A stretch of 64,000 nt of DNA. Source: a bacterium (GTDB lineage Bacteria > UBA8248). Made by a program: the position numbers and the translations under genes. The stretch is from positions 2,048,001 through 2,112,000 of the forward strand of contig OZ253442.1 of the NCBI GenBank assembly GCA_965261085.1. Reading direction: 5' to 3'. Below the pieces are notes generated by a model that saw only the letters and a program-made list of their open reading frames with translations, was not told the DNA's origin and ran no database searches. Below are positions 32,695 through 43,003 of the stretch, one piece after another. The first letter of the stretch is position 1; each line of letters begins with the position of its first letter.

Positions 32695-33657
32695 TTAATC
32701 GACGTAAATACAGGTTCCCGCCTCTCCGCGCAGGGCCGGGAGGGCATCTTCCAGGGCGGCGATGCAGATGCGCTTGCCTCCCCCTTCGAGAAAGCGGATC
32801 GCCGCCTCTATCTTGGGTCCCATGCTGCCGGGCGGGAAGTGGCCCTGGGCGTGATAATTCTTGATCTCGGATAGCGAAACTCTATCCAGTTCGCGCTGCT
32901 GCGGCGTGCCGAAGTGGACGGCCACCCTGGGCACGGCCGTCAAGATCATCATGTCCTCTACGCCTAAGACGTTGGCCATGAGGGCGGAGGTCAAATCCTT
33001 GTCGATGACGGCGTCGAGCCCCCGACGCGCGCCGTCGGCCTCGCGCACGACGGGAATGCCCCCGCCGCCGCCCGCGATCACCACGGCGCCACTTTGCGCT
33101 ATGGCCTGGATGAGCGAGATGTCCACGATGTGTTTAGGCCTGGGGGAGGCGACCACGTGCCGCCAGCCGCGGCCCGAGTCCTCGCGCATCGTCCAGCCCA
33201 TCTCCTTCTCATACCGCCTGGCTTCTTCTTCCGTGTAGGTGTAGCCCACGAACTTCGTCGGCGCGTCGAAGGCCGGATCGTCGGGGTCGACCTCGACCTG
33301 GGTCAGGAGGCAAACCACGTGGCGCGGGTCGCCCGCGCGCCTGAGCGCGTTCTCGAACGCCTGCATGAGCAGGTAGGCGATTCCCCCCTGGCTGTGAGCG
33401 ACGCAGATGTCGAGCGTCATCGGCGTCACCTGCTCGCTCGAAATCGCCTGTCGCATGAGGATTTTGCCCACGACGGGGCCGTTTCCGTGCGTGATGATGA
33501 GTTCGTTCTTGAGTTGTAGGAGGGGCAGCAGCGCGCGGCCCGTCGCCGCAGCGATGGCGGCCTGCTCCTCGGCGGTGCCGCGTATCTCGGGCGGATGGGT
33601 CGCGTTGCCGCCCACGGCGACGAGGATGCGTTCGGGAAGTTCGGGCGGGGAGGCCAT
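32695..33657 (-). CDS. arcC: Carbamate kinase
   Basis: VAVGGNA, ITHGNGP, VVASPRP, GGGGGIPV, AVIDKD and GSMGPKIEAA motifs. Confidence 0.93.
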   Translation of the reverse strand: MASPPELPERILVAVGGNATHPPEIRGTAEEQAAIAAATGRALLPLLQLKNELIITHGNGPVVGKILMRQAISSEQVTPMTLDICVAHSQGGIAYLLMQAFENALRRAGDPRHVVCLLTQVEVDPDDPAFDAPTKFVGYTYTEEEARRYEKEMGWTMREDSGRGWRHVVASPRPKHIVDISLIQAIAQSGAVVIAGGGGGIPVVREADGARRGLDAVIDKDLTSALMANVLGVEDMMILTAVPRVAVHFGTPQQRELDRVSLSEIKNYHAQGHFPPGSMGPKIEAAIRFLEGGGKRICIAALEDALPALRGEAGTCIYVD

Positions 33658-33904
33658 CAGCGGTATCTCCCAATAAACCCCGGCCTTCGGAAGCGGCGGC
33701 ATACAAATGCGGGTACAAGTCCCGCGCCGTCCTAAAAGCCGGGAGGAACATCTTACAACAAGCGGGGCGTTGTGGGGTAGAGAAATTTTTTGGGGGCAAG
33801 CACGACTGATGAAGGAGCGATTGCCGATTGAGGAAGGTATCGGTTCGCAACTCCTCGCTCCTTGCTCCTCGCTCGAAAGAATTCCTCCTTCATCAGTCGG
33901 AATT

Positions 33905-34121
33905 CACCCCCCACGCATCAGCCGTCGCACAAACCGCTCGGCTTCTGCTACTCCCCCTCAAGGGGGGAGTGATTTTGGAATTTTCCTTGTTGGGATTTGA
34001 TCCGCTCGGTTGGAAACCCTCATTCTTTAATTGTCATTGACCCGCATTGGGAATCACTCCCCCCTTGAGGGGGAGTCAGTGAGGTAAGGGCGTAAGCCCG
34101 CAAGCGAACTGGTGGGGGGTG
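33905..34121. repeat. Two family A REP half-elements
   Basis: CTCCCCCTCAAGGGGGGAGTG near 33951 and CACTCCCCCCTTGAGGGGGAGTCAGTGAG near 34055. Confidence 0.75.
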
Positions 34122-34266
34122 AATCGCGACCGAGAAGGGAGCGATTGCTCCTTTTCAAGTCAGGCAGCCCCTCCTTCATCAATCGGGTTTGGCCCACACC
34201 CCCCGTTCATCCATACTCAAGCGGCGGATGGCGACGCGTAAGTCGCGCGCGAGTCGAAATAAGGGC

Positions 34267-34296
34267 TTGACAAGAATGGAAAATTTACCGCATTAT
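34267..34296 (+). promoter_or_regulatory. Putative sigma70 promoter at the start of the long lipoprotein leader
   Basis: TTGACA-N18-CATTAT; the -10 element is imperfect. Confidence 0.5.
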
Positions 34297-34475
34297 CCTA
34301 ATGCCGAGTAATTACACGAGAGCAGCCGCCCAAGGGACGCTCGCTGAATGCAGGACGGGCCTCATTCCAGAGGGCCGGAACGGGCGGGAACCACCTTGCG
34401 AAGTATGCACTCGCGTATGGCTTGGCGAAGCCCGGAAGACGACGACCCGGAAGGTTCCGGGCTTCAGTAGCAAAT

Positions 34476-35100
34476 ATCACGAGGCTAGAGGACTCGACTC
34501 ATCATGAAGCATGCCGCAAATCCCTCTCCAGTCTCGTGAATCAGTCAATCAGACGGCCCGGAGTTTTTCGTTCGCGCAAGCGGAGGCGCTCCGGCGCAGG
34601 GAAAGACGGTAAGCCCGGCGGGAGCCGGAGAAGCAGTAAATCACGAGGCTAGGCCAGAGGACTCGACCCGCGATGAAGCACGCCACGAATCCCCCTACCA
34701 GTCTCGTGAATTCACAGGCCATCGGCCCGGAGGCCCGGTTTCGCGCAAGCGGCGGCCCGGCCCCGGGAAAGATTGAAACCCGGGCAACGCCCGGATAAGG
34801 AGAATCGAAATTTCGGCTCGGGCCGGAGCGGTTTCATATCACGAGGCTGGAGGACTCAAACCATGATGATTCCTGAAAAGACTCCCACGCTAGTCTCGTG
34901 GATAAGCCGGCAACCGGCCCGGACTCGGCTGTCCGGGCCGGGGGCCTCGCGCTCCGGCGCCTGCCTGAAACGAATAAAAGCCCGATAACGGATGAAAGTC
35001 GGAAAGACAAACAGAAAGGAGGTTGGTTAAATCCAGACACTTCGGTTTTGTAGTAGCCAAAGTTCTTTAATAATATCACGAGACTAGGAGGACTCAAAAA
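34476..35100 (+). repeat. Tandem array of RBS-mimic hairpin units upstream of lipoprotein 1
   Basis: ATCACGAG(G/A)CT(A/G)...GAGGACTC at 34476, 34640, 34838 and 35075; inverted arms C(C/T)AGTCTCGTG at 34528, 34698 and 34890. Confidence 0.8.
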
Positions 35101-36633
35101 GTGATGAAACTCACCAGTAATAAAATCTTTTCATTCATGCTGGCGGCGGTGTTTGCGCTGACGCTCGCCGGCTGCGGCGGCGGCGGCGGCGGTACGGCTG
35201 CGGTGGATCCGGATCCTCCGGTGGTGACGCCGGAGCCTACCCCGCAGGAGATGTGCGCGGCGGATGGCGGGCGGTTTGAAGACGACGGGTCGTGCACCTC
35301 GGCCGCCGATCTCGAGACAGAACGTATAGCGGCGGAGGAGGCGGCAGCGGACAAAGTAGCAGATGCTACGAAATCGGCCGGTACGAAAGAAGAGGCCATC
35401 GGCGACGAGGCCGAAAGCGACGGTGCTGGCGGTCTCGGCGGCGCTACCGCTACTGCTCTCGACATCGAACACAAAGACGGCGCTGTGTCGATCGCGGTCA
35501 GCAGAGGCACCGGCGATGATAAGGTGGATTTCATGTCGGCCATGGATCTGACCGGCGTGGATGGCAGCACAGGCAGCATGAACTTGCTCGGCCCCAATGA
35601 TGACGACGTGACGGAAATCGCTATCGTCTACACCGACATCGACACGCCCACGCCCACGAAGTTCGGGGATGAGGGCACGGATGTCACGCTGAACGCCAAC
35701 CCTAAAACCACTAACGGCGAAGACTTCCAATCTGTCACTATCATCAATGATGATTTGGCGAAGATAGCGACGGATGGCATTACCGCTACAGGTGCTGGTG
35801 AGATCACTGTCCTGGCGGCAGTCGAGGACAACGACCAAACGGCGGATGTGGATGAGACCGTTGCGGCGTTTGAAACCGATGCCACCTTCGACGGCGCGGA
35901 TGGCAAATTGAAGTGCGCCCGCGACACCAACTGCATGGTCACGCTCGACGCGGACGGCAAGATAACTGATTTCAGCGCCGGATGGGAGTTCACACCCGCC
36001 GATGGCGCTAAGATCGACGTGGAGGACACTGACTACCTCTGGTACGGCGCCTGGCTGATGAAGACGGCGCAAGATGATGGCTCGGATGAATACAACCAGG
36101 TCGAGACCTTCGCGGATTCGACGCTTGTTGAGGCGAACAACGTTGGTAATGTCGATGGCAGCGCGGAATATAAAGGCGGCGCGGCAGGCGTGTACGTGAG
36201 AAACGTGTACGTACCATCAACTACGGGTGAGCAGAAACTCGACTATGCCAACTCCGGCCACTTCACGGCGAACGTCAATTTGACGGCGACCTTCGGTCAG
36301 ATGAACGCAGAGGGTTGTACTGGTGCTAACTGCGGCACCATCGCTCCCAACTTGATCAACACCGTAAGCGGAACCATCGACAACTTCAGCTTGTCCGGCG
36401 GCGAGGATGCGAGCGGCTGGGGCGTGGATGTGGCAGCCGGTATCAACGGCGCTGATCTTGAGAACGGAACGGCCAAGGGCGGTGGAGGTGATGATGGGTC
36501 GATTTCCGGAAACTTCCGCGGTACCGATACCGATGATGACGGTGCCATCGCGCCGAAAGCTCTGGTCGGCGAGTTCAACGCCGAGTTCACGAACGGCTCC
36601 GTGGCCGGTGGTTACGGTGCGAGAAGGCAGTAG
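35101..36633 (+). CDS. Surface lipoprotein 1 with a TbpB/Slam-substrate-like C-terminal beta-barrel
   Basis: Lipobox LAGC followed by poly-Gly; DYLWYGAWL, GSAEYKGGAAGVY, FTANVNLTATFG and terminal GSVAGGYGARRQ; RBS AGGAGG. Confidence 0.8.
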   Translation: MMKLTSNKIFSFMLAAVFALTLAGCGGGGGGTAAVDPDPPVVTPEPTPQEMCAADGGRFEDDGSCTSAADLETERIAAEEAAADKVADATKSAGTKEEAIGDEAESDGAGGLGGATATALDIEHKDGAVSIAVSRGTGDDKVDFMSAMDLTGVDGSTGSMNLLGPNDDDVTEIAIVYTDIDTPTPTKFGDEGTDVTLNANPKTTNGEDFQSVTIINDDLAKIATDGITATGAGEITVLAAVEDNDQTADVDETVAAFETDATFDGADGKLKCARDTNCMVTLDADGKITDFSAGWEFTPADGAKIDVEDTDYLWYGAWLMKTAQDDGSDEYNQVETFADSTLVEANNVGNVDGSAEYKGGAAGVYVRNVYVPSTTGEQKLDYANSGHFTANVNLTATFGQMNAEGCTGANCGTIAPNLINTVSGTIDNFSLSGGEDASGWGVDVAAGINGADLENGTAKGGGGDDGSISGNFRGTDTDDDGAIAPKALVGEFNAEFTNGSVAGGYGARRQ

Positions 36634-36651
36634 AAACAGAACAGAGCAAGA

Positions 36652-36696
36652 CGCCTGTGGTCTCGGGGCTTGACGATGAGCCCCGGGGCCGGGGCG
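36652..36696 (+). other. 3' stem-loop after lipoprotein 1, no U-tract
   Basis: GGTCTCGGGGCT...AGCCCCGGGGCC with G-U pairs on the + strand; conserved after lipoprotein 2. Confidence 0.6.
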
Positions 36697-36748
36697 AACC
36701 TAACAAGAAAGAAAAGGGGATTGCAAAGCAAGGCGAGTGACGCATTTT

Positions 36749-36948
36749 GGGGGTTACTCATTGGTTGCTCTCTATCGTCGGGAGCAAATTTACCGACCCA
36801 TGCTACAGAGTTTGAGTCCTCTCGGTGTGGGGAGGGAATAATGAGTAACCCCCACCTCTTCGCTATACCCGGTTTCCCCAAGTTTGGCAAGCTCAGGTTG
36901 GATTGATTCACAGAGGCGGTCCCGAGAGAAGGGGCCGCCTTTTGTTTT
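36749..36948 (+). ncRNA. Putative structured RNA containing an anti-RBS segment
   Basis: Perfect 14-bp closing stem (36749-62 with 36840-53), two internal hairpins with G-U pairs, and an intrinsic terminator. Confidence 0.6.
36914..36948 (+). terminator. Intrinsic terminator
   Basis: AGGCGGTCCC-loop-GGGGCCGCCT followed by TTTGTTTT. Confidence 0.8.
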
Positions 36949-37004
36949 GGTGTGGGGAAGAATGCAAACGCTCCCGCATTGGTCTCGGCAAACGCTCCTT
37001 TCTC

Positions 37005-37196
37005 GGGGTTGTTGAAAAAGACCCCTTTTTAGAGACTAGAGGGGACACCCCTTTCGACTGGTAAAAGCAACCCCCCTGTCCCCCCTTGTCAGGGGGGCTT
37101 TTCTTCCACCCCCTCGTCGGGGGGCATCGCCTTTACCCCCCTGACAAGGGGGGACAGGGGGGTTGCTCCCTTGACAAAGGCTTTTTCAACAACCCC
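37005..37196. mobile_element. MITE with IS1182-type ends enclosing a REP pair
   Basis: GGGGTTGTTGAAAAAG...CTTTTTCAACAACCCC terminal inverted repeats matching the IS at 40275; internal palindrome CCCCCTGTCCCCCCTTGTCAGGGGG. Confidence 0.75.
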
Positions 37197-37363
37197 TCTT
37201 CGGTCAGAATTGACCCTCAAGGGGGGAGTGAATTTCCTCTCTCATCAATCGGCAAACGCTCTCGCATTGGTCGCGTCAAACACTCATTCATCAATCGTGT
37301 TTGACCTTCATCGGTCGGAAGAATTCCACCCTGATCGGTCGCGTTTGCTCCTCATCGGTCGGA

Positions 37364-37832
37364 ATTGACGAAGCGCGCGATCTGTTCATATAGTAATGGA
37401 TGTCCCGAAGCGCCGGAGGACCCGTCGCCAAGGAGAAACGCATGACGACGTATGAATACCTGAACCTCACCGCCTCCTACGGCGGCCTTGCGCTGATCTG
37501 CTACGGCATCCGCGTCATGGCGAAGGGCGCCGAAATGCGCGCGACCGACTCCGAGCGCAAGCACGAGCAGGTGATGACCGCATCCGAGCGCAGGCACGAG
37601 GAGTCGATGACGTCCCTGCGCGAACTCATCGACGGGCAGGCGGAAAGCCGCATGGCCCTGCGCAAACTCATCGAGCGAACCGGATAGCGAACCACAAGGT
37701 CGTCATTCCGGCGCATGCCGGTGGCGACCGTGAGGTTGACCAGAACCAAAGTGGAACGTCCGGCGTCGGGCGTTTCTGCACCCCGGATAAAACGCTCCGG
37801 GATGACGAGCCAAACCTTTATCCGCCGCAGCA
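37364..37832 (+). repeat. Duplicated ~470-bp cassette (promoter, small gene, REP), copy A
   Basis: Nearly identical to 41965-42434; includes TTGACG-N18-TATAGT at 37365-37394. Confidence 0.9.
37442..37687 (+). CDS. Small protein with charged repeats (copy 2)
   Basis: 81 aa from MTTYEY; RBS AAGGAG; paralog of 28550-28828. Confidence 0.75.
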   Translation: MTTYEYLNLTASYGGLALICYGIRVMAKGAEMRATDSERKHEQVMTASERRHEESMTSLRELIDGQAESRMALRKLIERTG

Positions 37833-37870
37833 AACTCTCTCGCGTTTGACGCGTTTGATCTCACTCGGTT

Positions 37871-37900
37871 CCCTGCCGGAACCGGCAGGGGGCTTTTTTT
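37871..37900 (+). terminator. Intrinsic terminator upstream of lipoprotein 2
   Basis: CCCTGCCGG-AA-CCGGCAGGG followed by GGCTTTTTTT. Confidence 0.7.
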
Positions 37901-37966
37901 GCTCGAACGCGAGTGAGGAGAGGGGGTCAATATGTTATTATAACGAGACCAGAGGGGACTCAAAAA

Positions 37967-40126
37967 GTGATGAAACTCACCGGTAATAAAATCTTTTCAT
38001 TCATGTGGGCGGCGGCCTTCGCGCTGACGCTGGCCGGCTGCGGCGGCGGCGGTGGTGGTGGTGCGTCGGACGATACCATGACGACACCGTCAGTACCCGA
38101 CCAGGCGATCATGGCGGCGAAAGATGCGGCGGCGGAAGCTGCGGCAGAGGCTACGGCGGCGCTGAATGCAGCGAAGGAGGCCGTAGACGGCGCCAGTGCA
38201 GACCAGGATTATGACGCCGTGCACTACGCTCTCGCCACTACCGAACTGGGCAAGGCCAAGGATGCCAAGGCGGCTGCGGAGGCCGCACAGGCGGACGCCG
38301 AGATGTTCGCCAAGGCGGTTGCGGATGCCAAGAAGGCTGCGCCTCCGGCTTCTTCGGATCAGGCCGAGTTTGAAGCAAGGCTGGCCCTGGCGGATGCCAA
38401 GACTGCAACGGCGAGCGCCGTAGCGGCGGCGGGTGCGGCCGTGACGGCGACGAAGGCGGCTGCGAGAGCGGCGGCGGCTGCGGTGACCAAGGCGACGGCG
38501 GCAAGGACGAATGCCGCTGGAGCCGAGGCCGCGAAGAAGGCGGCGGATCAAGCGGCGAAGGACGCGGCGGCCGCCAAGAAGACGGCGGATGCGGCGAAGG
38601 CCGCCGTAGCGAAACTCAATGATGACGGCATCGGCACCAGGAAGGGTGCTGCGGACCTCGAGTCGGCTGCGGACACTGCTGCGGGCAATGCAGCCACCGC
38701 CATGAGGAAGGCGAATGAAGCCAAGGCGGCTGCCGAAAAGGCGCGGGACGATGCCATGGCTGCGGCTAACACGCACGTTCTGGGCTTGTTCAAGGCGGCG
38801 AATGGAGACGATATTACATTTGTCGGCAGTGAAGATGATGCGGATATCGCCTCTGCTCTCGGAAGAGCGAAATCCGCTCGGAGAAAGGCCGTTATCGAAG
38901 CAATCGGAACAGCGGCGGACGCCCGACTCGGAGCTGAAGTTGTGATTAAGTGGCCTGCCGACGTGGCAGCCAATCCTGATGCTGCACCACCTACGGAGGC
39001 CGTGCCCGGAGCGCTTTCGATTGAGGTCATCCCCACCGGCGGCTCTGAGATTCCCTTCCGCGCGGAAGCCGTGGAGGATGACCCTTTTACGGATCGAGAC
39101 GAGTCCATGTCGAAGACGGCCACCAAGATCGACGGGTTGCCCGGCTTCAAACACGGGTATGCAGTTTCGGATGGCGGGTCCCATACAATCGTCTTCACCG
39201 ACAAGGAACAGTCGACTCCGGCCGTTCCGGAGAAGACCGTCACCTTGACCTTAGATAACCGGCCCGTGACTGCTTCTCGGGTTGTCCTGCCGGAAGGTGC
39301 AACCACTCTTTCAAACGCCACCTACGATCATGACGGTGACCCGGATACGTTTGGGGTTACAGCCACATTCACGTGTGGTTCAACCAACCCGAGTGATTGC
39401 TCGTTTTCAATTCAAGACGGGAAACTGACATCTCTTGTTGGATATGTAGTTGATGTCTCTGTAACCGATTTTCTACTAGCTGCCGCAAAAGATGGAGTAG
39501 ATGATAATGACTACCTCGCCTTCGGCGTCTGGCTGAGAGTCGACGAGGACGGCAACACGGATGGCGAGCTACCGGCCGTCGGCGTATTCGCAGACGGCGG
39601 AACGCCTTTCGCTACGTCTGCAGCTCTTATCGGTACGGCGACTTACCGGGGCGCTGCTACGGGCGTTTATACCCAGGGAAGCGCGGTTGATTACTTCCAA
39701 GGCAGCGCCACCTTGACGGCCAACTTCGGCACGAAGCCCGAGATGGGTGAAGACGACATGATGGGAGCCATCACCGGCATGATTCACGACATCGTGGCGG
39801 GTGGTGTTTCCATGCGCGATGTTATTCTCCTGAACGCTGATTTTACGAATGCTGATGGTAAGCCCGTGGATAACATTACTGCGGCAGGCGGCTTCACCGG
39901 AATGGCCCGCATGGGCGCGCCCACCGTGACAGGCGACGTGGCCTCGCACCCCTACAACGGCGCATGGGGCGGGCAGTTCTACGGTCCGGCTGCGGATGAA
40001 GACGCGACAGGCGTAGATGCCCTTCCGCCTGCGGTTGCCGGCGCGTTCGGCGTGACCGGCGCCACGGGTGAAGGCGATGCCGCCGTCACCAGAAGTTACG
40101 TGGGCGCGTTCGGCGCGCGCAGGTAG
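37967..40126 (+). CDS. Surface lipoprotein 2 with an Ala-rich stalk and TbpB-like C-terminal barrel
   Basis: Signal peptide nearly identical to lipoprotein 1 (LAGC + poly-Gly); DYLAFGVWL, GTATYRGAATGVY, ATLTANFG and terminal YVGAFGARR. Confidence 0.8.
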   Translation: MMKLTGNKIFSFMWAAAFALTLAGCGGGGGGGASDDTMTTPSVPDQAIMAAKDAAAEAAAEATAALNAAKEAVDGASADQDYDAVHYALATTELGKAKDAKAAAEAAQADAEMFAKAVADAKKAAPPASSDQAEFEARLALADAKTATASAVAAAGAAVTATKAAARAAAAAVTKATAARTNAAGAEAAKKAADQAAKDAAAAKKTADAAKAAVAKLNDDGIGTRKGAADLESAADTAAGNAATAMRKANEAKAAAEKARDDAMAAANTHVLGLFKAANGDDITFVGSEDDADIASALGRAKSARRKAVIEAIGTAADARLGAEVVIKWPADVAANPDAAPPTEAVPGALSIEVIPTGGSEIPFRAEAVEDDPFTDRDESMSKTATKIDGLPGFKHGYAVSDGGSHTIVFTDKEQSTPAVPEKTVTLTLDNRPVTASRVVLPEGATTLSNATYDHDGDPDTFGVTATFTCGSTNPSDCSFSIQDGKLTSLVGYVVDVSVTDFLLAAAKDGVDDNDYLAFGVWLRVDEDGNTDGELPAVGVFADGGTPFATSAALIGTATYRGAATGVYTQGSAVDYFQGSATLTANFGTKPEMGEDDMMGAITGMIHDIVAGGVSMRDVILLNADFTNADGKPVDNITAAGGFTGMARMGAPTVTGDVASHPYNGAWGGQFYGPAADEDATGVDALPPAVAGAFGVTGATGEGDAAVTRSYVGAFGARR

Positions 40127-40274
40127 TAGAAGAAAAAGCAAGACGCCTTTGGGCCTCGGGCTTATCAAGCCCCGGGGCCGGGGGCGATCCGATAAGAAAG
40201 AAAAGGGGATTTCCGAAGCGGGGAGGGAGAGCGTCGAAGGGGAGCGCGCCCTTCGATACAAACGCTCCTTTCTC

Positions 40275-41796
40275 GGGGTTGTTGAAAAACCCCTGACTCT
40301 ATGCTTGGATGTATGGATATTACGCGCCCGAGAAGGGAATATCCGCGATGTTGGGACGCAAGAACCGCGCCCAGATGGATTTGTTCATCACCGGTTCGCT
40401 GGAGAGGTTGATTCCCGAGGATCACATATTGGCCCGCGTGAACCGCGTTCTGGACCTGAGTTGGCTGCGCGAGGAAGTGGCGGATTGTTATTGCGCGGAC
40501 AACGGCCGTCCTGGGATCGACCCCGAAGTGGCGGTTCGGTTGATGTTGGCGGGCCTTCTGCTGGGGTTCGTGCACGACCGTCGGTTGATGCGCGAGGCGC
40601 AGGTGAACATCGCGATCCGGTGGTTCATCGGTTACGGGCTGGAGGATCGGCTGCCGGATCATTCGAGCCTGACGCGGATACGGCAGCGCTGGGGGGAGGC
40701 CCGGTTCCGGGAGATATTCCGCCGCACGGTCCGTGCGTGCCTGGATGCGAAGGTGGCCAAGGCCGAAGTCGTGCACGTGGACGCCTCATTGATCCGCGCG
40801 GACGTGAGTTGGGAGAGTCTGGTGGAGCGTCACGTGGACGAGGTGATAGCGGAGAACCCCGTCGAGGAGGAGGCCGGGAAGAAGGGTGGAGGAGGCCGCC
40901 GTGGCGGGGGTTCCGGGAAGGTGAGCCGGACGGACCCGGACGCGCGGCTGGCGAGAACGGGCGGGGGATTCGAGCCGAGCTACAAGCAGCACGCTGTGGT
41001 GGACGACACGCGCGGGGTGGTGCTCGACGTATCGGTGACGGAGGGTACGGTGAACGAGCGTGAGGTGCTCGAATCGCAGGTGGAAGCGGTATGCGAGGTA
41101 TCGGGGCGCGCGCCCGCGATGGTGACGGCGGACTCTGGCTACGCCTACTCGAAGGTCTACGCGGCCCTGGAGCGCCGGGGTGTGGCCGCGCTCATTCCGG
41201 CGAAGAGGGAACCCTCGCAGAGCCGTGTTCCGTTGCGCCTGTTCCGCTACGACGCGCGGCACGACATCGTGAAGTGTCCGCGCGGCAAGATACTGAGCCC
41301 CCGTCGGCCCGCAAAGGGGGGGCGTTATTATCGTTCGAAGACCCGTGATTGCGCGGGCTGCGCGCTTCGCGAGGATTGCCTGCCGAAGGCGTGGTCGAGC
41401 AAGGTGGTGTTGGTTCCGCATGCGTATCCGGCGCTGTTGCGCGCGCGCCGGCGCCATGCGCGATGGAGGGAGGAGGAGCGGCGGATGTACCGGCGTCATA
41501 TGTGGCGCTCGGAGGGCTACCACGGCGAGGCGAAGACCTGGCACGGGCTTGCGCGCGCGGTGCGGCGCGGTCTTGAGAACATGAAGATACAGTCCTACCT
41601 GACGGCGGCGGCGATCAACCTCAAGCGGCTCTCCGCCGCACTTGCTGCAAGGTTATTCGCCCTCTGGAGGGCCTGGTCGGCCCGGGAAGAGCCTCTGTGC
41701 GTCCATCGCGGCCTCGCAAGCTGCGCGGGCTTCCTGTCCGCCGCCGCGTGACCCTCCATACCGCCCGCTCCCGAAACCGGGTTATTCAACAACCCC
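40275..41796 (+). mobile_element. IS1182 family insertion sequence
   Basis: 18-bp terminal inverted repeats GGGGTTGTTGAA(A/T)AACCC; 5-bp target duplication TTCTC at 40270-74 and 41797-801. Confidence 0.9.
40348..41751 (+). CDS. IS1182 family transposase
   Basis: GRPGIDP, LPDHSSL, VDASLI, TDPDA, ADSGY, C..C.LR..C and INLKRL motifs. Confidence 0.92.
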   Translation: MLGRKNRAQMDLFITGSLERLIPEDHILARVNRVLDLSWLREEVADCYCADNGRPGIDPEVAVRLMLAGLLLGFVHDRRLMREAQVNIAIRWFIGYGLEDRLPDHSSLTRIRQRWGEARFREIFRRTVRACLDAKVAKAEVVHVDASLIRADVSWESLVERHVDEVIAENPVEEEAGKKGGGGRRGGGSGKVSRTDPDARLARTGGGFEPSYKQHAVVDDTRGVVLDVSVTEGTVNEREVLESQVEAVCEVSGRAPAMVTADSGYAYSKVYAALERRGVAALIPAKREPSQSRVPLRLFRYDARHDIVKCPRGKILSPRRPAKGGRYYRSKTRDCAGCALREDCLPKAWSSKVVLVPHAYPALLRARRRHARWREEERRMYRRHMWRSEGYHGEAKTWHGLARAVRRGLENMKIQSYLTAAAINLKRLSAALAARLFALWRAWSAREEPLCVHRGLASCAGFLSAAA

Positions 41797-41964
41797 TTCT
41801 CAGTCGCGTTTGACCTTCGGCGGCTACTCAGGGTGAGGTCGATACGGTGGCCATGCAAGACGAGGGGAACACGCTCGCTCCCAGGGCCGGGTTTTTCAAC
41901 AGCCCCTCCTCACTCGGATTTGATATTCATCACTCGCGTTTGACACTCCCGCGCATCGGTCTGG

Positions 41965-42434
41965 ATTGACGAAGCGCGCGATCTGTTCATATAGTAATGG
42001 ATGTCCCGAAGCGCCGGAGGACCCGTCGCCAAGGAGAAACGCATGACGACGTATGAATACCTGAACCTCACCGCCTCCTACGGCGGCCTTGCGCTGATCT
42101 GCTACGGCATCCGCGTCATGGCGAAGGGCGCCGAAATGCGCGCGACCGACTCCGAGCGCAAGCACGAGCAGGTGATGACCGCATCCGAGCGCAGGCACGA
42201 GGAGTCGATGACGTCCCTGCGCGAACTCATCGACGGGCAGGCGGAAAGCCGCATGGCCCTGCGCATACTCATCGAGCGAACCGGATAGCGAACCACAAGG
42301 TCGTCATTCCGGCGCATGCCGGTGGCGACCGGGAGGTTGACCAGAACCAAAGTGGAACGTCCGGCGTCGGGCGTTTCCGGATACCGGATAAAAACACTCC
42401 GGGATGACGAGCCAAACCGTTATCCGCCGCAGCA
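41965..42434 (+). repeat. Duplicated ~470-bp cassette, copy B
   Basis: Nearly identical to 37364-37832. Confidence 0.9.
42043..42288 (+). CDS. Small protein with charged repeats (copy 3)
   Basis: 81 aa; one substitution (K to I) relative to copy 2. Confidence 0.75.
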   Translation: MTTYEYLNLTASYGGLALICYGIRVMAKGAEMRATDSERKHEQVMTASERRHEESMTSLRELIDGQAESRMALRILIERTG

Positions 42435-43003
42435 GAATTCCTTCTTGATCAGTCGGCAAACGCTCTCGCGCATTGGTCGCGTTTGATCTCACTCGCTCGC
42501 GTTTGACGCGCAATTCCCCGCATTTGGCGTCGCCGCGCCCGTAGCGGGATGCGCGAGAATGCCGTCCGCAAATGCAGTTTCCCGCTTGCACTTGAGCATC
42601 ATGAGGAAGGCACGATGAAAAAGGGAATTTCAGGGGATCATTTCTTCCGCACGCACCTGGCGAATCCCTCGCGGCGGTCGCAATCGCATTTGGCGGACCT
42701 CGCGCGCTACCCGCAGGCCGACGGCTCCGTCGGGGCGATGGAAAGGCGCGGGGGCGGGAGGAGAACGGGGGTTTCGGAATTGATGAAAAATACGATAAAT
42801 ATCGATTAATACATGAAAAGGTTTATGGCTCATCCTACCAGGACAATCTATTATAATTCATGTAATTGTAGAGTTATATTAAAGTAGTACATTATAGAAT
42901 TATCGAAATTTATCGAATTGAAAACTTTTCTCAAACCCCCGCATTTGCCCGCATTTCCCCGCACGGAGTCATCGTTTCAGCAGCCACCAGGTGAACCGGG
43001 GGG

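Follow-up and report, generated by a model that had tools for sequence, protein, structure and literature searches.

A structured RNA and copies of a translation start region flank a variable lipoprotein gene in a genus of Nitrospinota

The locus described here lies in a window of 64,000 nucleotides, the whole stretch of DNA that was analysed, from the genome of an uncultured marine bacterium of the environmental Nitrospinota. In the part from 34267 to 40126, two genes for lipoproteins of one family lie on the + strand, and the sequence features that the original prediction had listed for them, namely an array in the leader of the first gene, a series of elements 3' of it and a single copy of the motif at the second gene, were all confirmed. 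The features are as follows, with folding energies and z scores where these were computed.

34267-35103, +: leader of about 800 nt, with a promoter and three hairpin units of about 65 nt
34267..34296, +: sigma-70-like promoter (TTGACA, 18 nt, CATTAT), 10/12 consensus positions
34300..34472, +: 5' part of the leader, conserved
34474..34541, +: leader unit 1, hairpin, -21.5 kcal/mol, z -2.6
34638..34711, +: leader unit 2, hairpin with arms as in unit 1, -26.1 kcal/mol, z -4.0
34836..34903, +: leader unit 3, proximal type, -21.2 kcal/mol, z -2.1
34909..34946, +: GC-rich hairpin 3' of unit 3, an inverted repeat
35014..35022, +: upstream GAAAGGAGG, Shine-Dalgarno-like by sequence reading, no start codon after it
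35075..35106, +: real start region of lipoprotein 1: AUCACGAGACUAG, GGAGG (35087-35091), GAGGACUCAAAA (35088-35099), GUG AUG
35104..36633, +: lipoprotein 1, 509 aa; lipobox LAGC, glycine linker, predicted TbpB-like C-terminal handle and barrel
36652..36696, +: GC-rich stem-loop without a U tract, -35.3 kcal/mol, z -5.2
36748..36854, +: three-way-junction RNA of the locus-1 type, about 107 nt, -54.8 kcal/mol, z -5.7
36912..36950, +: intrinsic-terminator-like hairpin and T tract, 12 pairs (36912-36942) then TGTTTTGG, -24.1 kcal/mol, z -4.0
37943..37972, +: start region of lipoprotein 2 with a single altered motif copy (AUAACGAGACCAGAGGGGACUCAAAAAGUGAUG; 37943-37969), by sequence reading
37970..40126, +: lipoprotein 2, an ORF of 718 aa, of the lipoprotein 1 family
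40137..40211, +: copy of the GC hairpin and A-rich linker 3' of lipoprotein 2, 80% identical to 36645-36722

The stretch LTLAGC followed by a run of G forms the N-terminal lipobox of lipoproteins 1 and 2 and of their paralogs. The mature part of lipoprotein 1 is hypervariable and is essentially replaced between strains, to the point of being almost unalignable: the protein is 40% identical to the ortholog of the closest genome, a genome in which the DNA of the neighbouring gene shows 94% identity, and the proteins at the orthologous locus range from 509 to 949 aa with different C-terminal types. No match of the lipoprotein 1 sequence to Pfam TbpB_B_D or to PDB sequences was detectable. A model of its last 250 aa (pLDDT 85.8) retrieved NHBA and HpuA in Foldseek with E below 0.001 (probability 1.00), and the next matches were TbpB, LbpB, fHbp, PmSLP and hemophilin, with modest TM-scores (0.3-0.6). 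The genome holds a single Slam match (PF04575, 90.7 bits, genome positions 65677-66546, - strand), which lies directly downstream of a further family member, paralog A (67273-68718, - strand), in keeping with the usual position of Slam translocator genes beside that of a substrate, and not beside lipoprotein 1. The lipobox, the modelled TbpB-like handle with its 8-stranded barrel and the presence of Slam in the genome point to a lipoprotein of the Slam-dependent type, with predicted surface exposure.

Lipoprotein 2 is probably chimeric, judging from its sequence. At its 5' end it resembles locus 1 (87% identity between 37956-38074 and 35090-35208), and its C-terminal 405 aa are 53% identical to a gene of another genome (G014), one with a different 5' end and likewise no copy of the RNA. 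As had been described, lipoprotein 2 carries one motif copy and neither the array nor the RNA (nhmmer, whole genome), with a terminator-like site upstream at 37867-37894; no junction RNA comes after the hairpin-linker copy that follows the gene. It also held true that 34267-40126 contains no regulator or recombinase assigned to a family. The one further ORF of this part (37400-37687, 95 aa) matches neither Pfam nor NCBIfam, and a gene for a DDE transposase begins shortly after the end of this part, at 40309.

The leader of lipoprotein 1 is retained in eleven same-genus relatives. Both promoter hexamers are conserved among the aligned orthologous leaders, and three contigs from RNA libraries have matches that begin at 34303-34320, which is a weak hint of a transcript start near the promoter. 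The 5' part that follows shows 69-87% identity in four relatives, with only a weak RNAalifold consensus structure and no Rfam match. The leader had been said to contain three copies of the gene's own ribosome-binding region, and the motif ATCACGAGRCTRG..GAGGACTC..ATG indeed occurs at 34473, 34637 and 34835, with the real one from 35072; the units are diverged copies of the lipoprotein 1 translation start region. Each upstream copy folds as a hairpin of about 65 nt, whereas the real start forms no hairpin (z 0.0). In unit 1 the 5' arm AUCACGAGGCU and the 3' arm AGUCUCGUGA enclose GAGGACUC, an AUG and an 11-codon mini-ORF (MKHAANPSPVS*) that ends within the 3' arm, and a GACUC(A/G)A site lies in the open loop of every unit. 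The 3' arm of unit 3, CUAGUCUCGUG, is the perfect Watson-Crick complement of CACGAGACUAG at the real start region. Three to four units are present per leader in the orthologous loci compared, and 90.2% of the cells in the unit alignment are paired, versus 40-49% with the partner columns slid, so that the units are conserved hairpins displaying the start-region motif. No covariation was found in these hairpins, the score of 0.068 being equal to the shuffle mean and reached by 271 of 500 shuffles.

Further elements of the leader are also kept. The hairpin at 34909-34946 retains its stem while its loop letters vary in an alignment of 11 genomes. The Shine-Dalgarno-like GAAAGGAGG recurs in the other 10 orthologous leaders, where it is shifted about 8 nt downstream relative to the copy at 35014; it occurs also in the 5' UTRs of many paralogs and may resemble mRNA-stabilising Shine-Dalgarno sites. 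Against Rfam 15 (cmscan of 33000-43000, E<=1) the leader gave only a sub-threshold match to RT-3 at 34912-35050 (20.2 bits versus a gathering score of 40.5, E 0.24). A CsrA/RsmA-titrating or CsrA-controlled leader was considered and rejected, because no CsrA match was found in the genome and the GGA of the units sits at the stem edge, not in an apical loop. At the real start, the core cacgagactaggaggactcaaa is found in 12/12 orthologous loci with 3 to 5 A preceding GUGAUG, and paralog A has a tandem copy of its own start region, kept in 12 of the 14 genomes that have this paralog.

Downstream of lipoprotein 1 the predicted order, a stem-loop without a U tract and then a terminated structured RNA complementary to the ribosome-binding motif, was recovered. 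The GC-rich stem-loop at 36652-36696 was rejected as an intrinsic terminator, since it is followed by GAACCUAACAAG and not by a U tract; the intrinsic form, a GC-rich stem with a U tract directly after it, is found at 36912-36942 and at 37867-37894. An A-rich linker follows the stem-loop up to 36747, and hairpin and linker recur 3' of paralogs. The junction RNA starts 115 nt after the lipoprotein 1 stop codon on the sense strand, is closed by a stem between 36748-36762 and 36840-36854, and exposes loop 1, UAUCGUC (36773-36779), and loop 2, UUUGAGUC (36811-36818). Positions 36748-36860 gave no match in the same Rfam scan, and this is a new structured RNA family of about 107 nt, found within one Nitrospinota genus among the genomes searched. 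It is present in the genome studied here and in 16/22 others of the same genus, where each genome has several to about 20 matches; of 19 genomes belonging to other genera of the family, none has it. Among GTDB species genomes, all 75 exact pattern matches fell in records titled Nitrospinota/Nitrospinaceae or just 'bacterium', and one of them carries the label Binatia.

The 3' element is supported as a real, conserved and strand-specific structured RNA. An alignment of 37 sequences analysed with RNAalifold shows compensatory changes in 11 of 24 pairs together with many G-U pairs, and under a covariance model the sense strand reaches 100-124 bits as compared with about 30 bits for the opposite strand, the locus-1 RNA having 110 bits. 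The stems vary, but the letters of the loops and of the junction strands (GUACC, GGGAAYAA) hardly change, the loops being CUCGUGA (AUCGUCG in the locus-1 type) and UUUGAGUC. At the locus itself the RNA is 93-98% identical in four genomes, versus 83-94% for the neighbouring carbamate kinase gene. The RNA is not peculiar to locus 1 and is the common 3' element of a whole lipoprotein family: 29 of the 42 copies examined lie 8-201 nt after the stop codon of a family lipoprotein gene, usually at about 70 nt, and most paralog copies have a C/U-rich stretch such as CUGUUCUUCUU after the closing stem. RNA and motif do not coincide in every gene; some RNA-bearing family genes have other ribosome-binding sites (N-termini MMKMLRY.. 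and MQKWRSF..), while lipoprotein 2 and paralog A have the motif and lack the RNA. Tandem RNA copies at 765964-766256 of the genome have no lipoprotein ORF upstream, and their equivalents in another genome (G006) follow a lipoprotein gene.

Sequences of the locus are found in metatranscriptome assemblies. One contig spans 34315-35314, from the leader into the coding sequence, and two cover the junction RNA (36730-36911 and 36459-36842), the latter continuous with the end of the coding sequence. These agree with the expectation that the junction RNA is transcribed, as far as assembled sequences without RNA ends, strand or abundance can be read, DNA carry-over being possible. An RNA run labelled as sponge metagenome contains a near-identical 385-nt piece of the locus.

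Read in reverse complement, the apical loop and stem at 36808-36821, GAGTTTGAGTCCTC, gives GAGGACTCAAAC; its match to the real start covers 11 contiguous nt (35088-35098), and that to unit 3 covers 12 nt. Two loops of the RNA match two sites, AUCACGAG and GACUCAAA, that bracket the Shine-Dalgarno sequence of family start regions. This is most marked for the RNA of a paralog (genome positions 1668684-1668796), which has 9+11=20 contiguous complementary nt to the locus-1 start region. With this score the locus-1 start region ranks first of 8390 candidates (mean 9.05, sd 1.56), followed by paralog A with 17, in a post hoc test for which the loops were chosen after the match had been seen and the 8390 start regions form a crude set. 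The locus-1 RNA matches its own and the lipoprotein 2 start regions by one loop only, and its loop 1 (AUCGUCG) matches CGACGAUG in the paralog A start region, with a tied top score of 16. The proposed direction, from the locus-1 RNA to lipoprotein 2, is therefore not the one that the matches favour, as the strongest predicted pairing joins the RNAs of other paralogs to locus 1. Some paralog 5' UTRs contain GAGUCCUCC about 55 nt upstream of GGAGGACUC, which would allow this pairing in cis.

Other tests of this complementarity were less favourable. It is conserved in 12/12 orthologous loci, as predicted, with loop and motif invariant; the compensatory changes between seed and motif that had also been looked for were absent from these loci because both are invariant, and since neither loop 2 nor the motif varies, conservation cannot separate pairing from other constraint. 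When the 22-nt loop region was used to scan the whole genome by duplex energy, the 30 best sites included neither lipoprotein start region, and a reversed-query control gave similar energies. Word counts were not enriched (GAGGACTCA occurs 21 times, versus about 33 expected per word); judged only by k-mer counts and duplex energies, the seed match is unexceptional in its genome. Cofolding of the paralog RNA with the locus-1 start gave -0.8 kcal/mol versus -2.8 +/- 2.0 for shuffles, 50/60 of which were at least as good, under a model unable to form loop-loop contacts. Searches of the genome (96% complete) found no match for Hfq (PF17209) or ProQ (PF04352), nor for CsrA (PF02599), and a mechanism based on RNA only, through loop-loop contacts, is therefore conceivable.

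Repeated look-alikes of the ribosome-binding site on the 5' side and a folded RNA matching that site on the 3' side suggest RNA-based control among related genes. Array and RNA are both kept in relatives, which goes beyond chance. The original prediction had proposed an RNA-only switch between the two lipoprotein genes; this was supported only in part. Its anatomy, conservation and loop-motif complementarity stand, but the RNA is shared by the lipoprotein family, the best matches run in another direction, seed and motif show no compensatory change, and the pairing energies do not exceed those of controls. The explanation that we favour, though only tentatively, is that anti-start-site RNAs are borne on 3' UTRs and that decoys reside in the leader, at a locus that, as part of the same tentative explanation, would be a conserved expression site of a hypervariable Slam-type (TbpB-like) surface lipoprotein in this genus. 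We infer two layers of RNA control around lipoprotein 1, the 3' RNA and the leader. The 3' UTR of each family gene would carry a module made of a protective GC hairpin, the A-rich linker and the junction RNA of about 107 nt, and cleavage within the linker, perhaps by RNase E/G, would free the RNA. A homolog of RNase E/G is present in the genome, and 3' UTR-derived RNAs are described as products of RNase E-mediated decay that enable mRNA cross-regulation (PMC7038943). In the cell the loops would pair with the sites flanking the Shine-Dalgarno sequence of family start regions and block the ribosome, with the RNAs of other paralogs predicted to act most strongly on locus 1, and not the locus-1 RNA on lipoprotein 2. 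The leader hairpins may be decoys or competitors that act in cis, or the real start region may pair with them as an alternative; either way they would set the strength of the locus 1 response. We speculate further that the junction RNAs might form a recognition code, in which the 3' RNAs of expressed paralogs kiss the start regions of specific other paralogs, loop 1 variants choose the target (CUCGUGA or AUCGUCG selecting AUCACGAG or CGACGAUG, respectively) and leader decoys set a threshold, giving protein-free exclusive or ranked antigen expression in a host-associated bacterium; this extension is rather improbable.

The 3' element may alternatively act in cis only, as a terminator, processing site or stabiliser of the mRNA 3' end, with leader hairpins and Shine-Dalgarno-like sites stabilising the leader or loading ribosomes and the complementarity being an anti-Shine-Dalgarno-like by-product. 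The fixed place of the RNA, about 70 nt after the stop codon, the C/U-rich stretch such as CUGUUCUUCUU after the closing stem in most paralog copies, the terminator downstream at 36912-36942 and the leader GAAAGGAGG with no start codon after it all agree with such a role; six of the complementary nt are simply anti-Shine-Dalgarno, and the energy controls give no support for pairing. We nevertheless consider it unlikely, given that the tandem copies at 765964-766256 persist without an upstream gene, that near-invariant loop and junction letters beside varying stems are not needed by a plain stabiliser, that two separate loops place the locus-1 start region at the top of the 8390 candidates and that conservation of the RNA exceeds that of the neighbouring housekeeping gene. 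If the RNA acted instead by its three-dimensional fold, as a protein-binding or mRNA-localisation signal, a ligand sensor or a new self-cleaving ribozyme, the near invariance of the junction strands (GUACC, GGGAAYAA) and of both loops would be typical of a defined tertiary fold, and the tie to a single exported protein family and the lack of an Rfam match would fit as well. But nothing in the analyses points to a partner protein, a ligand or a cleavage site, known ribozyme classes covered by Rfam would have shown in cmscan, and the start-region copies in the leaders and the rank-1 complementarity would be left unexplained, which makes this quite improbable.

Another explanation concerns the DNA itself, in which the conserved 5' flank, with leader and signal peptide, and the conserved 3' flank, with hairpin and RNA, would mainly be homology arms for cassette exchange or gene conversion among paralogs, leading to surface variation, and the leader repeats would be scars of such exchange. 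The replacement of the mature coding sequence between close strains with both flanks kept speaks for it, as do the proteins of 509 to 949 aa with differing C-terminal types at the orthologous locus, the locus-1-like 5' end of lipoprotein 2 on a body whose G014 relative has another, and the tandem 5' duplicate of paralog A. However, the G-U pairs and compensatory changes indicate selection on a single-stranded sense fold and not on duplex homology, throughout the genus 3-4 copies of the unit persist as hairpins without decay, and no recombinase lies within 34267-40126. It is quite improbable, and it can coexist with the RNA control that we favour.

Several known systems share parts of this arrangement. 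Small RNAs derived from 3' UTRs are known in enterobacteria, such as NarS, CpxQ and MicL. Like these, the junction RNA is encoded on the sense strand, within the 3' UTR of a protein-coding gene whose transcript it shares; RNase E-type release and action on the start regions of other mRNAs, as thought for the enterobacterial RNAs, may apply here too. The enterobacterial RNAs need Hfq or ProQ, of which neither homolog was found here, and a single-stranded seed, whereas the junction RNA offers candidate seeds in two hairpin loops, belongs to a multi-copy family on paralogous genes and has a predicted processing only. Loop-loop or kissing antisense control is known from OxyS, which contacts fhlA mRNA through two loops, and from plasmid CopA/CopT. 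The junction RNA shares with them short loops of 6-8 nt complementary to the target and would need no long duplex, and its two contacts bracketing the ribosome-binding site, predicted from the letters, are of the OxyS/fhlA type. Unlike in OxyS and CopA, the putative targets are a paralog family, and the RNA is encoded in trans in 3' UTRs and not antisense to its target. If the pairing is true, RNAs borne on mRNAs would coordinate, without Hfq, ProQ or CsrA, a whole family of variable surface lipoproteins.

RNA sponges or target mimics that titrate small RNAs include the chb decoy for ChiX and 3'ETS-leuZ. The leader units likewise mimic a true target site and could compete for a regulator. They differ from these sponges in being three to four tandem hairpin copies within the target's own leader, with a putative titration. 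If the pairing is true, target-mimic decoys would be built into the leader of the target itself, of which we know of no described case in a literature search that was not aimed at that layout. Among variable surface-protein loci, the neisserial pilE/pilS genes have a conserved 3' repeat. They share with the lipoprotein locus a hypervariable body between a conserved 5' part that includes the signal peptide and a conserved 3' element, with many paralogs per genome. Unlike in pilE/pilS, each paralog here is a full gene that has a start region of its own, the analysis identified neither a recombinase nor a guide sequence, and the 3' element is under structural constraint at the RNA level. Conservation is far higher in the non-coding flanks than in the protein that they enclose, and the locus is therefore a tractable model for surface variation in uncultured symbionts. 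Finally, lipoprotein 1 shares with the Slam-dependent lipoproteins TbpB, LbpB, HpuA, fHbp, NHBA and PmSLP a lipobox, a flexible linker and a predicted C-terminal handle and 8-stranded barrel. The known Slam-type lipoproteins come from animal pathogens, whereas the host here belongs to the environmental Nitrospinota, and TbpB-like, Slam-type surface lipoproteins appear to have expanded and diversified in an environmental lineage.

The interval around lipoprotein 1 and lipoprotein 2 contains the following features, in window coordinates.

34267-34296, sigma-70-like promoter at the start of the non-coding stretch, both hexamers kept in the aligned orthologous leaders
35104-36633, + strand, lipoprotein 1, 509 aa
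36652-36696, GC-rich hairpin without a U tract, 3' of lipoprotein 1
up to 36747, A-rich linker between the GC-rich hairpin and the junction RNA
36748-36854, strongly folded RNA (junction RNA), 3' of lipoprotein 1
36912-36950, terminator-like hairpin with a T tract, 3' of the junction RNA
37970-40126, + strand, lipoprotein 2, 718 aa

The three observations underlying the original prediction, namely the leader copies of the start region, the 3' elements and a lipoprotein 2 with a single copy of the motif, are all borne out. The 840 nt 5' of lipoprotein 1 are non-coding, and the two lipoproteins have in common the N-terminus MKLT(S/G)NKIFSFM..LTLAGC, which leads into a run of glycines. At 33950-34076 and 37066-37167 lie perfect inverted repeats, 25 and 32 nt long, one example being AGCAACCCCCCTGTCCCCCCTTGTCAGGGGGG, and related 22-nt words are dispersed across the genome; all of these resemble REP-type intergenic repeats. 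MicroRNA-like Rfam matches at 33952-34074 and 37062-37171 were set aside, since these perfect palindromes are repeat elements and not microRNAs.

The folded element 3' of lipoprotein 1 is a member of a new RNA family. BLAST and nhmmer searches identified five copies in the same genome (GCA_965261085.1) and many further copies in relatives.

Copies of the junction RNA in the own genome (BLAST and nhmmer)
window 36744-36860, the copy at locus 1
own genome 1668679-1668800 (-), single copy
own genome 765963-766074 and 766143-766259, tandem pair
own genome 254886-254988 (-), weak copy

RNAalifold folds 37 aligned copies into a consensus three-way junction, closed by a stem of about 14 bp and bearing two hairpins. 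In this fold 11 of the 24 predicted pairs show compensatory changes, and G-U pairs are frequent. The loops (UCGU in loop 1, GAGUUUGAGUCCUC around loop 2) and the junction strands GUACC and GGGAAYAA are near-invariant. When a covariance model was run against a 51-genome sample of the phylum, the RNA was detected in the own genome and in 16 of 22 same-genus genomes, a single genome giving as many as 20 matches, and in none of the 19 sampled genomes that represent other genera of the family; the rest of the sample gave one weak match of 41 bits. An exact gapped pattern run over the GTDB species genomes returned 75 matching stretches, all in records titled Nitrospinota, Nitrospinaceae or only 'bacterium', one record being labelled Binatia. 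Rfam has no match for the RNA or for the leader units. Readings of the RNA as an integron attC site (no core sites), a retron (no reverse transcriptase), a hammerhead (no CUGAUGA core) or a tRNA-like element (dropped from its sequence) were rejected, each also lacking an Rfam match. An isolated GAGTTTGAGTCCTC word at own-genome 4008295-4008308 (+), undetected by nhmmer and with the rest of the RNA absent, may be a remnant.

The leader of lipoprotein 1 carries the motif AUCACGAG(G/A)CU(A/G)G..GAGGACUC..AUG at 34473, 34637, 34835 and 35072, the last being the real start. Each of the three upstream copies forms the 5' half of a hairpin of about 65 nt with C(C/U)AGUCUCGUG(A/G) as its 3' arm (fold z-scores of -2.6, -4.0 and -2.1 for units 1-3), and no such partner exists for the real start region (fold z 0.0). 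The orthologous locus, adjoining the carbamate kinase gene, occurs in 11 other genomes of the genus, with 3-4 units where the entire leader can be compared. In an alignment of 32 units from 12 genomes, standard pairs fill 90.2% of the cells versus 40-49% once the partner columns are shifted. Covariation is absent among these 32 units (score 0.068, equal to the shuffle mean and reached by 271 of 500 shuffles), and the hairpins are thus conserved without being proven by compensatory change. One hairpin pair is G-U in 29 of the 32 units, so that the fold exists on the sense strand only; an A occupies that position in every real start region (UCACGAGACU), and the 3' arms of the units therefore pair perfectly with the real start and by wobble with their own 5' arms. 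Tandem Repeats Finder did not report this array because its units are too diverged and unequal in length, and a loose motif scan was uninformative, with chance matches in the hundreds. Many units contain a mini-ORF of 11-12 codons (M-x-H-A-x-x-P-S-P-V-S-stop). Conserved peptides were rejected as an explanation, since the start codon is missing in several units and the conserved codons coincide with the hairpin stem and arm; the mini-ORFs may still be translated as uORFs.

Both loops of the junction RNA are complementary to start regions of the lipoprotein genes. The apical loop UUUGAGUC (loop 2) with its short stem is complementary to GAGGACUCAAA(C). The match covers 11 nt at the real start and 12 nt in unit 3; units 1 and 2 match over 8 nt plus a wobble, and lipoprotein 2 over 14 pairs, one of them G-U. 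Loop 2 and the start-region motif are invariant in all 12 orthologous loci; the complementarity is therefore conserved and compensatory change cannot be scored. Two candidate cases of loop 2 covariation were rejected: a paralog in the related genome G014 with GAGGACCCAC and a matching GGGUCCUC in a tandem 'orphan' RNA is a single case, and the recurrent TTCTGGAGGACCCAC site of other genomes sits within a coding region. The word GAGGACTCA is not enriched (21 occurrences versus about 33 expected), and a seeded duplex-energy scan placed neither lipoprotein start region among its 30 best sites, the reversed-query control giving equally good energies with no excess for the real query. Loop 1 reads CUCGUG(A) in 26 of 37 copies and is then the complement of the AUCACGAG arm, which precedes the GAGGACUC site by 3-5 nt; in the other 11, comprising the locus-1 type and three copies without an upstream gene, it reads AUCGUCG. 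This second match, unnoticed before, changes the picture of the complementarity. We scored the longest exact complement per loop over a crude set of 8390 candidate start regions from the own genome. In this post hoc test with rough candidates, the locus-1 start region ranks first of 8390 for the paralog RNA at 1668684-1668796 (9+11=20; mean 9.05, sd 1.56), and paralog A, a Slam-linked lipoprotein gene at own-genome 67273-68718 (-), shares second place with 17. With the locus-1 RNA, three candidates tie at the top with 16, paralog A (CGACGAUG..GAGGACUCA) being one of them, and the RNA's own start region scores 15 by loop 2 alone (4+11). With the locus-1 start, no RNA shows a significant RNAcofold gain over shuffles, a result treated as uninformative and not as negative because the model cannot form kissing loops; for a few RNAs paired with the paralog A start region or decoy, 0-2 of 60 shuffles were as good.

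Start-region copies and complements also occur elsewhere in the lipoprotein family. The start region of paralog A is repeated in tandem in 12 of the 14 genomes with the paralog A motif, and start-region decoys are thus not unique to locus 1. In the own genome this duplication spans 68647-69039 (-), about 200 nt at 74% identity; the upstream copy retains the beginning of the coding sequence in decayed form, and GGAGGCCUUCUCA words are repeated before both copies. In the 5' UTR of some paralogs, GAGUCCUCC precedes GGAGGACUC by about 55 nt. It is a 9-nt perfect complement within the same gene and a candidate ribosome-binding-site trap in cis, so that the family would use the same pairing in cis. 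Lipoprotein clusters of two related genomes (L035, L036 and L037, from G014 and G021) have GAGUCCUCC in their 5' UTR in place of the GAAAGGAGGUUAAUCGG stretch.

For lipoprotein 1, searches of Pfam and NCBIfam and sequence and profile searches of the PDB yielded no usable match. Its last 250 residues were modelled from 28 family members (pLDDT 85.8). The best Foldseek neighbours of the model are NHBA, HpuA, TbpB, LbpB, fHbp, PmSLP and hemophilin, and the modelled C-terminal fold is that of Slam-dependent surface lipoproteins. The single Slam gene of the own genome (PF04575, 90.7 bits) lies at 65677-66546 (-), directly 3' of paralog A. Two further family genes, at own-genome 1668809-1670551 (-) and 1670736-1672512 (-) in this single-contig assembly, are each split over two reading frames with the canonical C-terminus ..AAFIGAFGANR in another frame, either by real frameshifts or by assembly errors; the junction RNA 3' of the first is intact.

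The original prediction required the 3' RNA to be transcribed, and RNA-library contigs do cover it, as a record of presence only, without strand, ends or level and with DNA carry-over possible. Parts of the window appear in six RNA-library runs, of which the contigs of four were examined. A 1861-nt contig from a related strain covers 34315-35314 and joins the leader to the coding sequence, two more cover 34303-34677 and 34320-34817, one from a run labelled sponge metagenome continues from the last part of the coding sequence into the junction RNA (36459-36842, 2 differences), and another covers 36730-36911 (1 difference). Lipoprotein 2 is mostly without such cover, though gaps prove nothing. 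The own genome (96% complete) has an RNase E/G homolog, a search of it for CsrA, Hfq or ProQ homologs found none, and the idea of a CsrA sponge was dropped for lack of a CsrA homolog.

Segment-by-segment comparison of locus 1 with four complete relatives reveals conserved flanks around a replaced body.

Identity of locus-1 segments in four complete relatives
Carbamate kinase gene: 94, 83, 85, 85%
Leader units: 92, 75, 76, 76%
Start region and signal peptide: 92, 87, 89, 93%
Junction RNA: 98, 93, 93, 93%
Mature coding sequence: short fragments in two relatives (186 of 1443 nt at 74%; 87 nt at 77%), none in the other two

The locus-1 proteins span 509-949 aa with differing C-terminal types, and those of the two closest genomes are 40% identical. 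It is such a pattern that would be expected if the flanks served mainly as recombination arms, a reading that we consider improbable. Lipoprotein 2, which does not adjoin the orthologous locus in the closest relative, is 87% identical to locus 1 over its first 119 nt, and its C-terminal 405 aa are 53% identical to a G014 gene whose 5' end is of a different type and which likewise has no junction RNA. With a locus-1-like 5' end and a G014-like body it looks like a chimera, and the absence of the RNA is therefore a feature of that lineage. Since the segment 36961-42600 is missing entirely from the closest relative's orthologous locus, lipoprotein 2 probably came with mobile DNA. A DDE transposase gene (DUF772, DDE_Tnp_1, DDE_Tnp_1_6) lies directly 3' of it at 40309-41751. 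Two copies of a 95-aa ORF (37400-37687 and 42001-42288), with a hydrophobic N-terminal half, a charged repeat-rich tail and no Pfam or NCBIfam family, flank lipoprotein 2 and the transposase; both flanks of the ORF are duplicated too, the downstream one at 94% identity over 144 nt, and a promoter-like site at 37365-37394 and a terminator-like site at 37867-37894 accompany the ORF.

The genomic position of the RNA bears on the other explanations. Among 42 copies at fetched loci, 29 lie 8-201 nt, typically about 70 nt, 3' of the stop codon of a lipoprotein gene ending ..G(A/S)FGAxxx; 2 are uninformative because the locus is cut, and for the other 11, the conserved tandem pair at own-genome 765964-766256 among them, no such gene lies closer than 450 nt. 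In the related genome G006 the equivalent tandem copies stand 3' of a family lipoprotein gene, so that the RNA has outlived its gene in the own genome. This pair (L025:3964-4260), with no lipoprotein gene upstream, has altered loop 2 sequences, GGAUGGAAUUCUUA and GAGUUGGGUCCUC, for which a target was sought and none found; about 10 other genomes also have the RNA in tandem pairs, and in one triplet, with model scores that are similarly reduced, and the pairs of G008 and G004 have the same altered loops. Across the genus, the number of RNA copies varies in step with the number of barrel domains, with the caveat that related genomes are not independent samples, and the four genomes without the barrel domain are also without the RNA. 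A purely cis role of the 3' element, at the 3' end or as a stabiliser, would suit the 29 copies behind stop codons and sits less easily with the tandem pair that persists without a gene; we regard it as unlikely. A function based on the fold itself would draw on the near-invariant junction strands and loops and leave the start-region matches aside, and we think it little more probable than recombination arms. The explanation that we favour, tentatively and at somewhat less than even confidence, is regulation directed against start sites by an RNA borne in the 3' UTR, with leader copies acting as decoys. It retains, in part and in spirit, the original proposal of an RNA-level link between the 3' element, the start-region copies and the paralogs. 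The details of that proposal find no support. The RNA is, instead of being special to locus 1, a family-wide element, and the proposed silencing of lipoprotein 2 by the locus-1 RNA gives way to a different direction, in which the best predicted pairings are those of other paralogs' RNAs with locus 1 and of the locus-1 RNA with paralog A. As analogies we draw on OxyS/fhlA, CopA/CopT, the ChiX decoys, STAB-SD and pilE.
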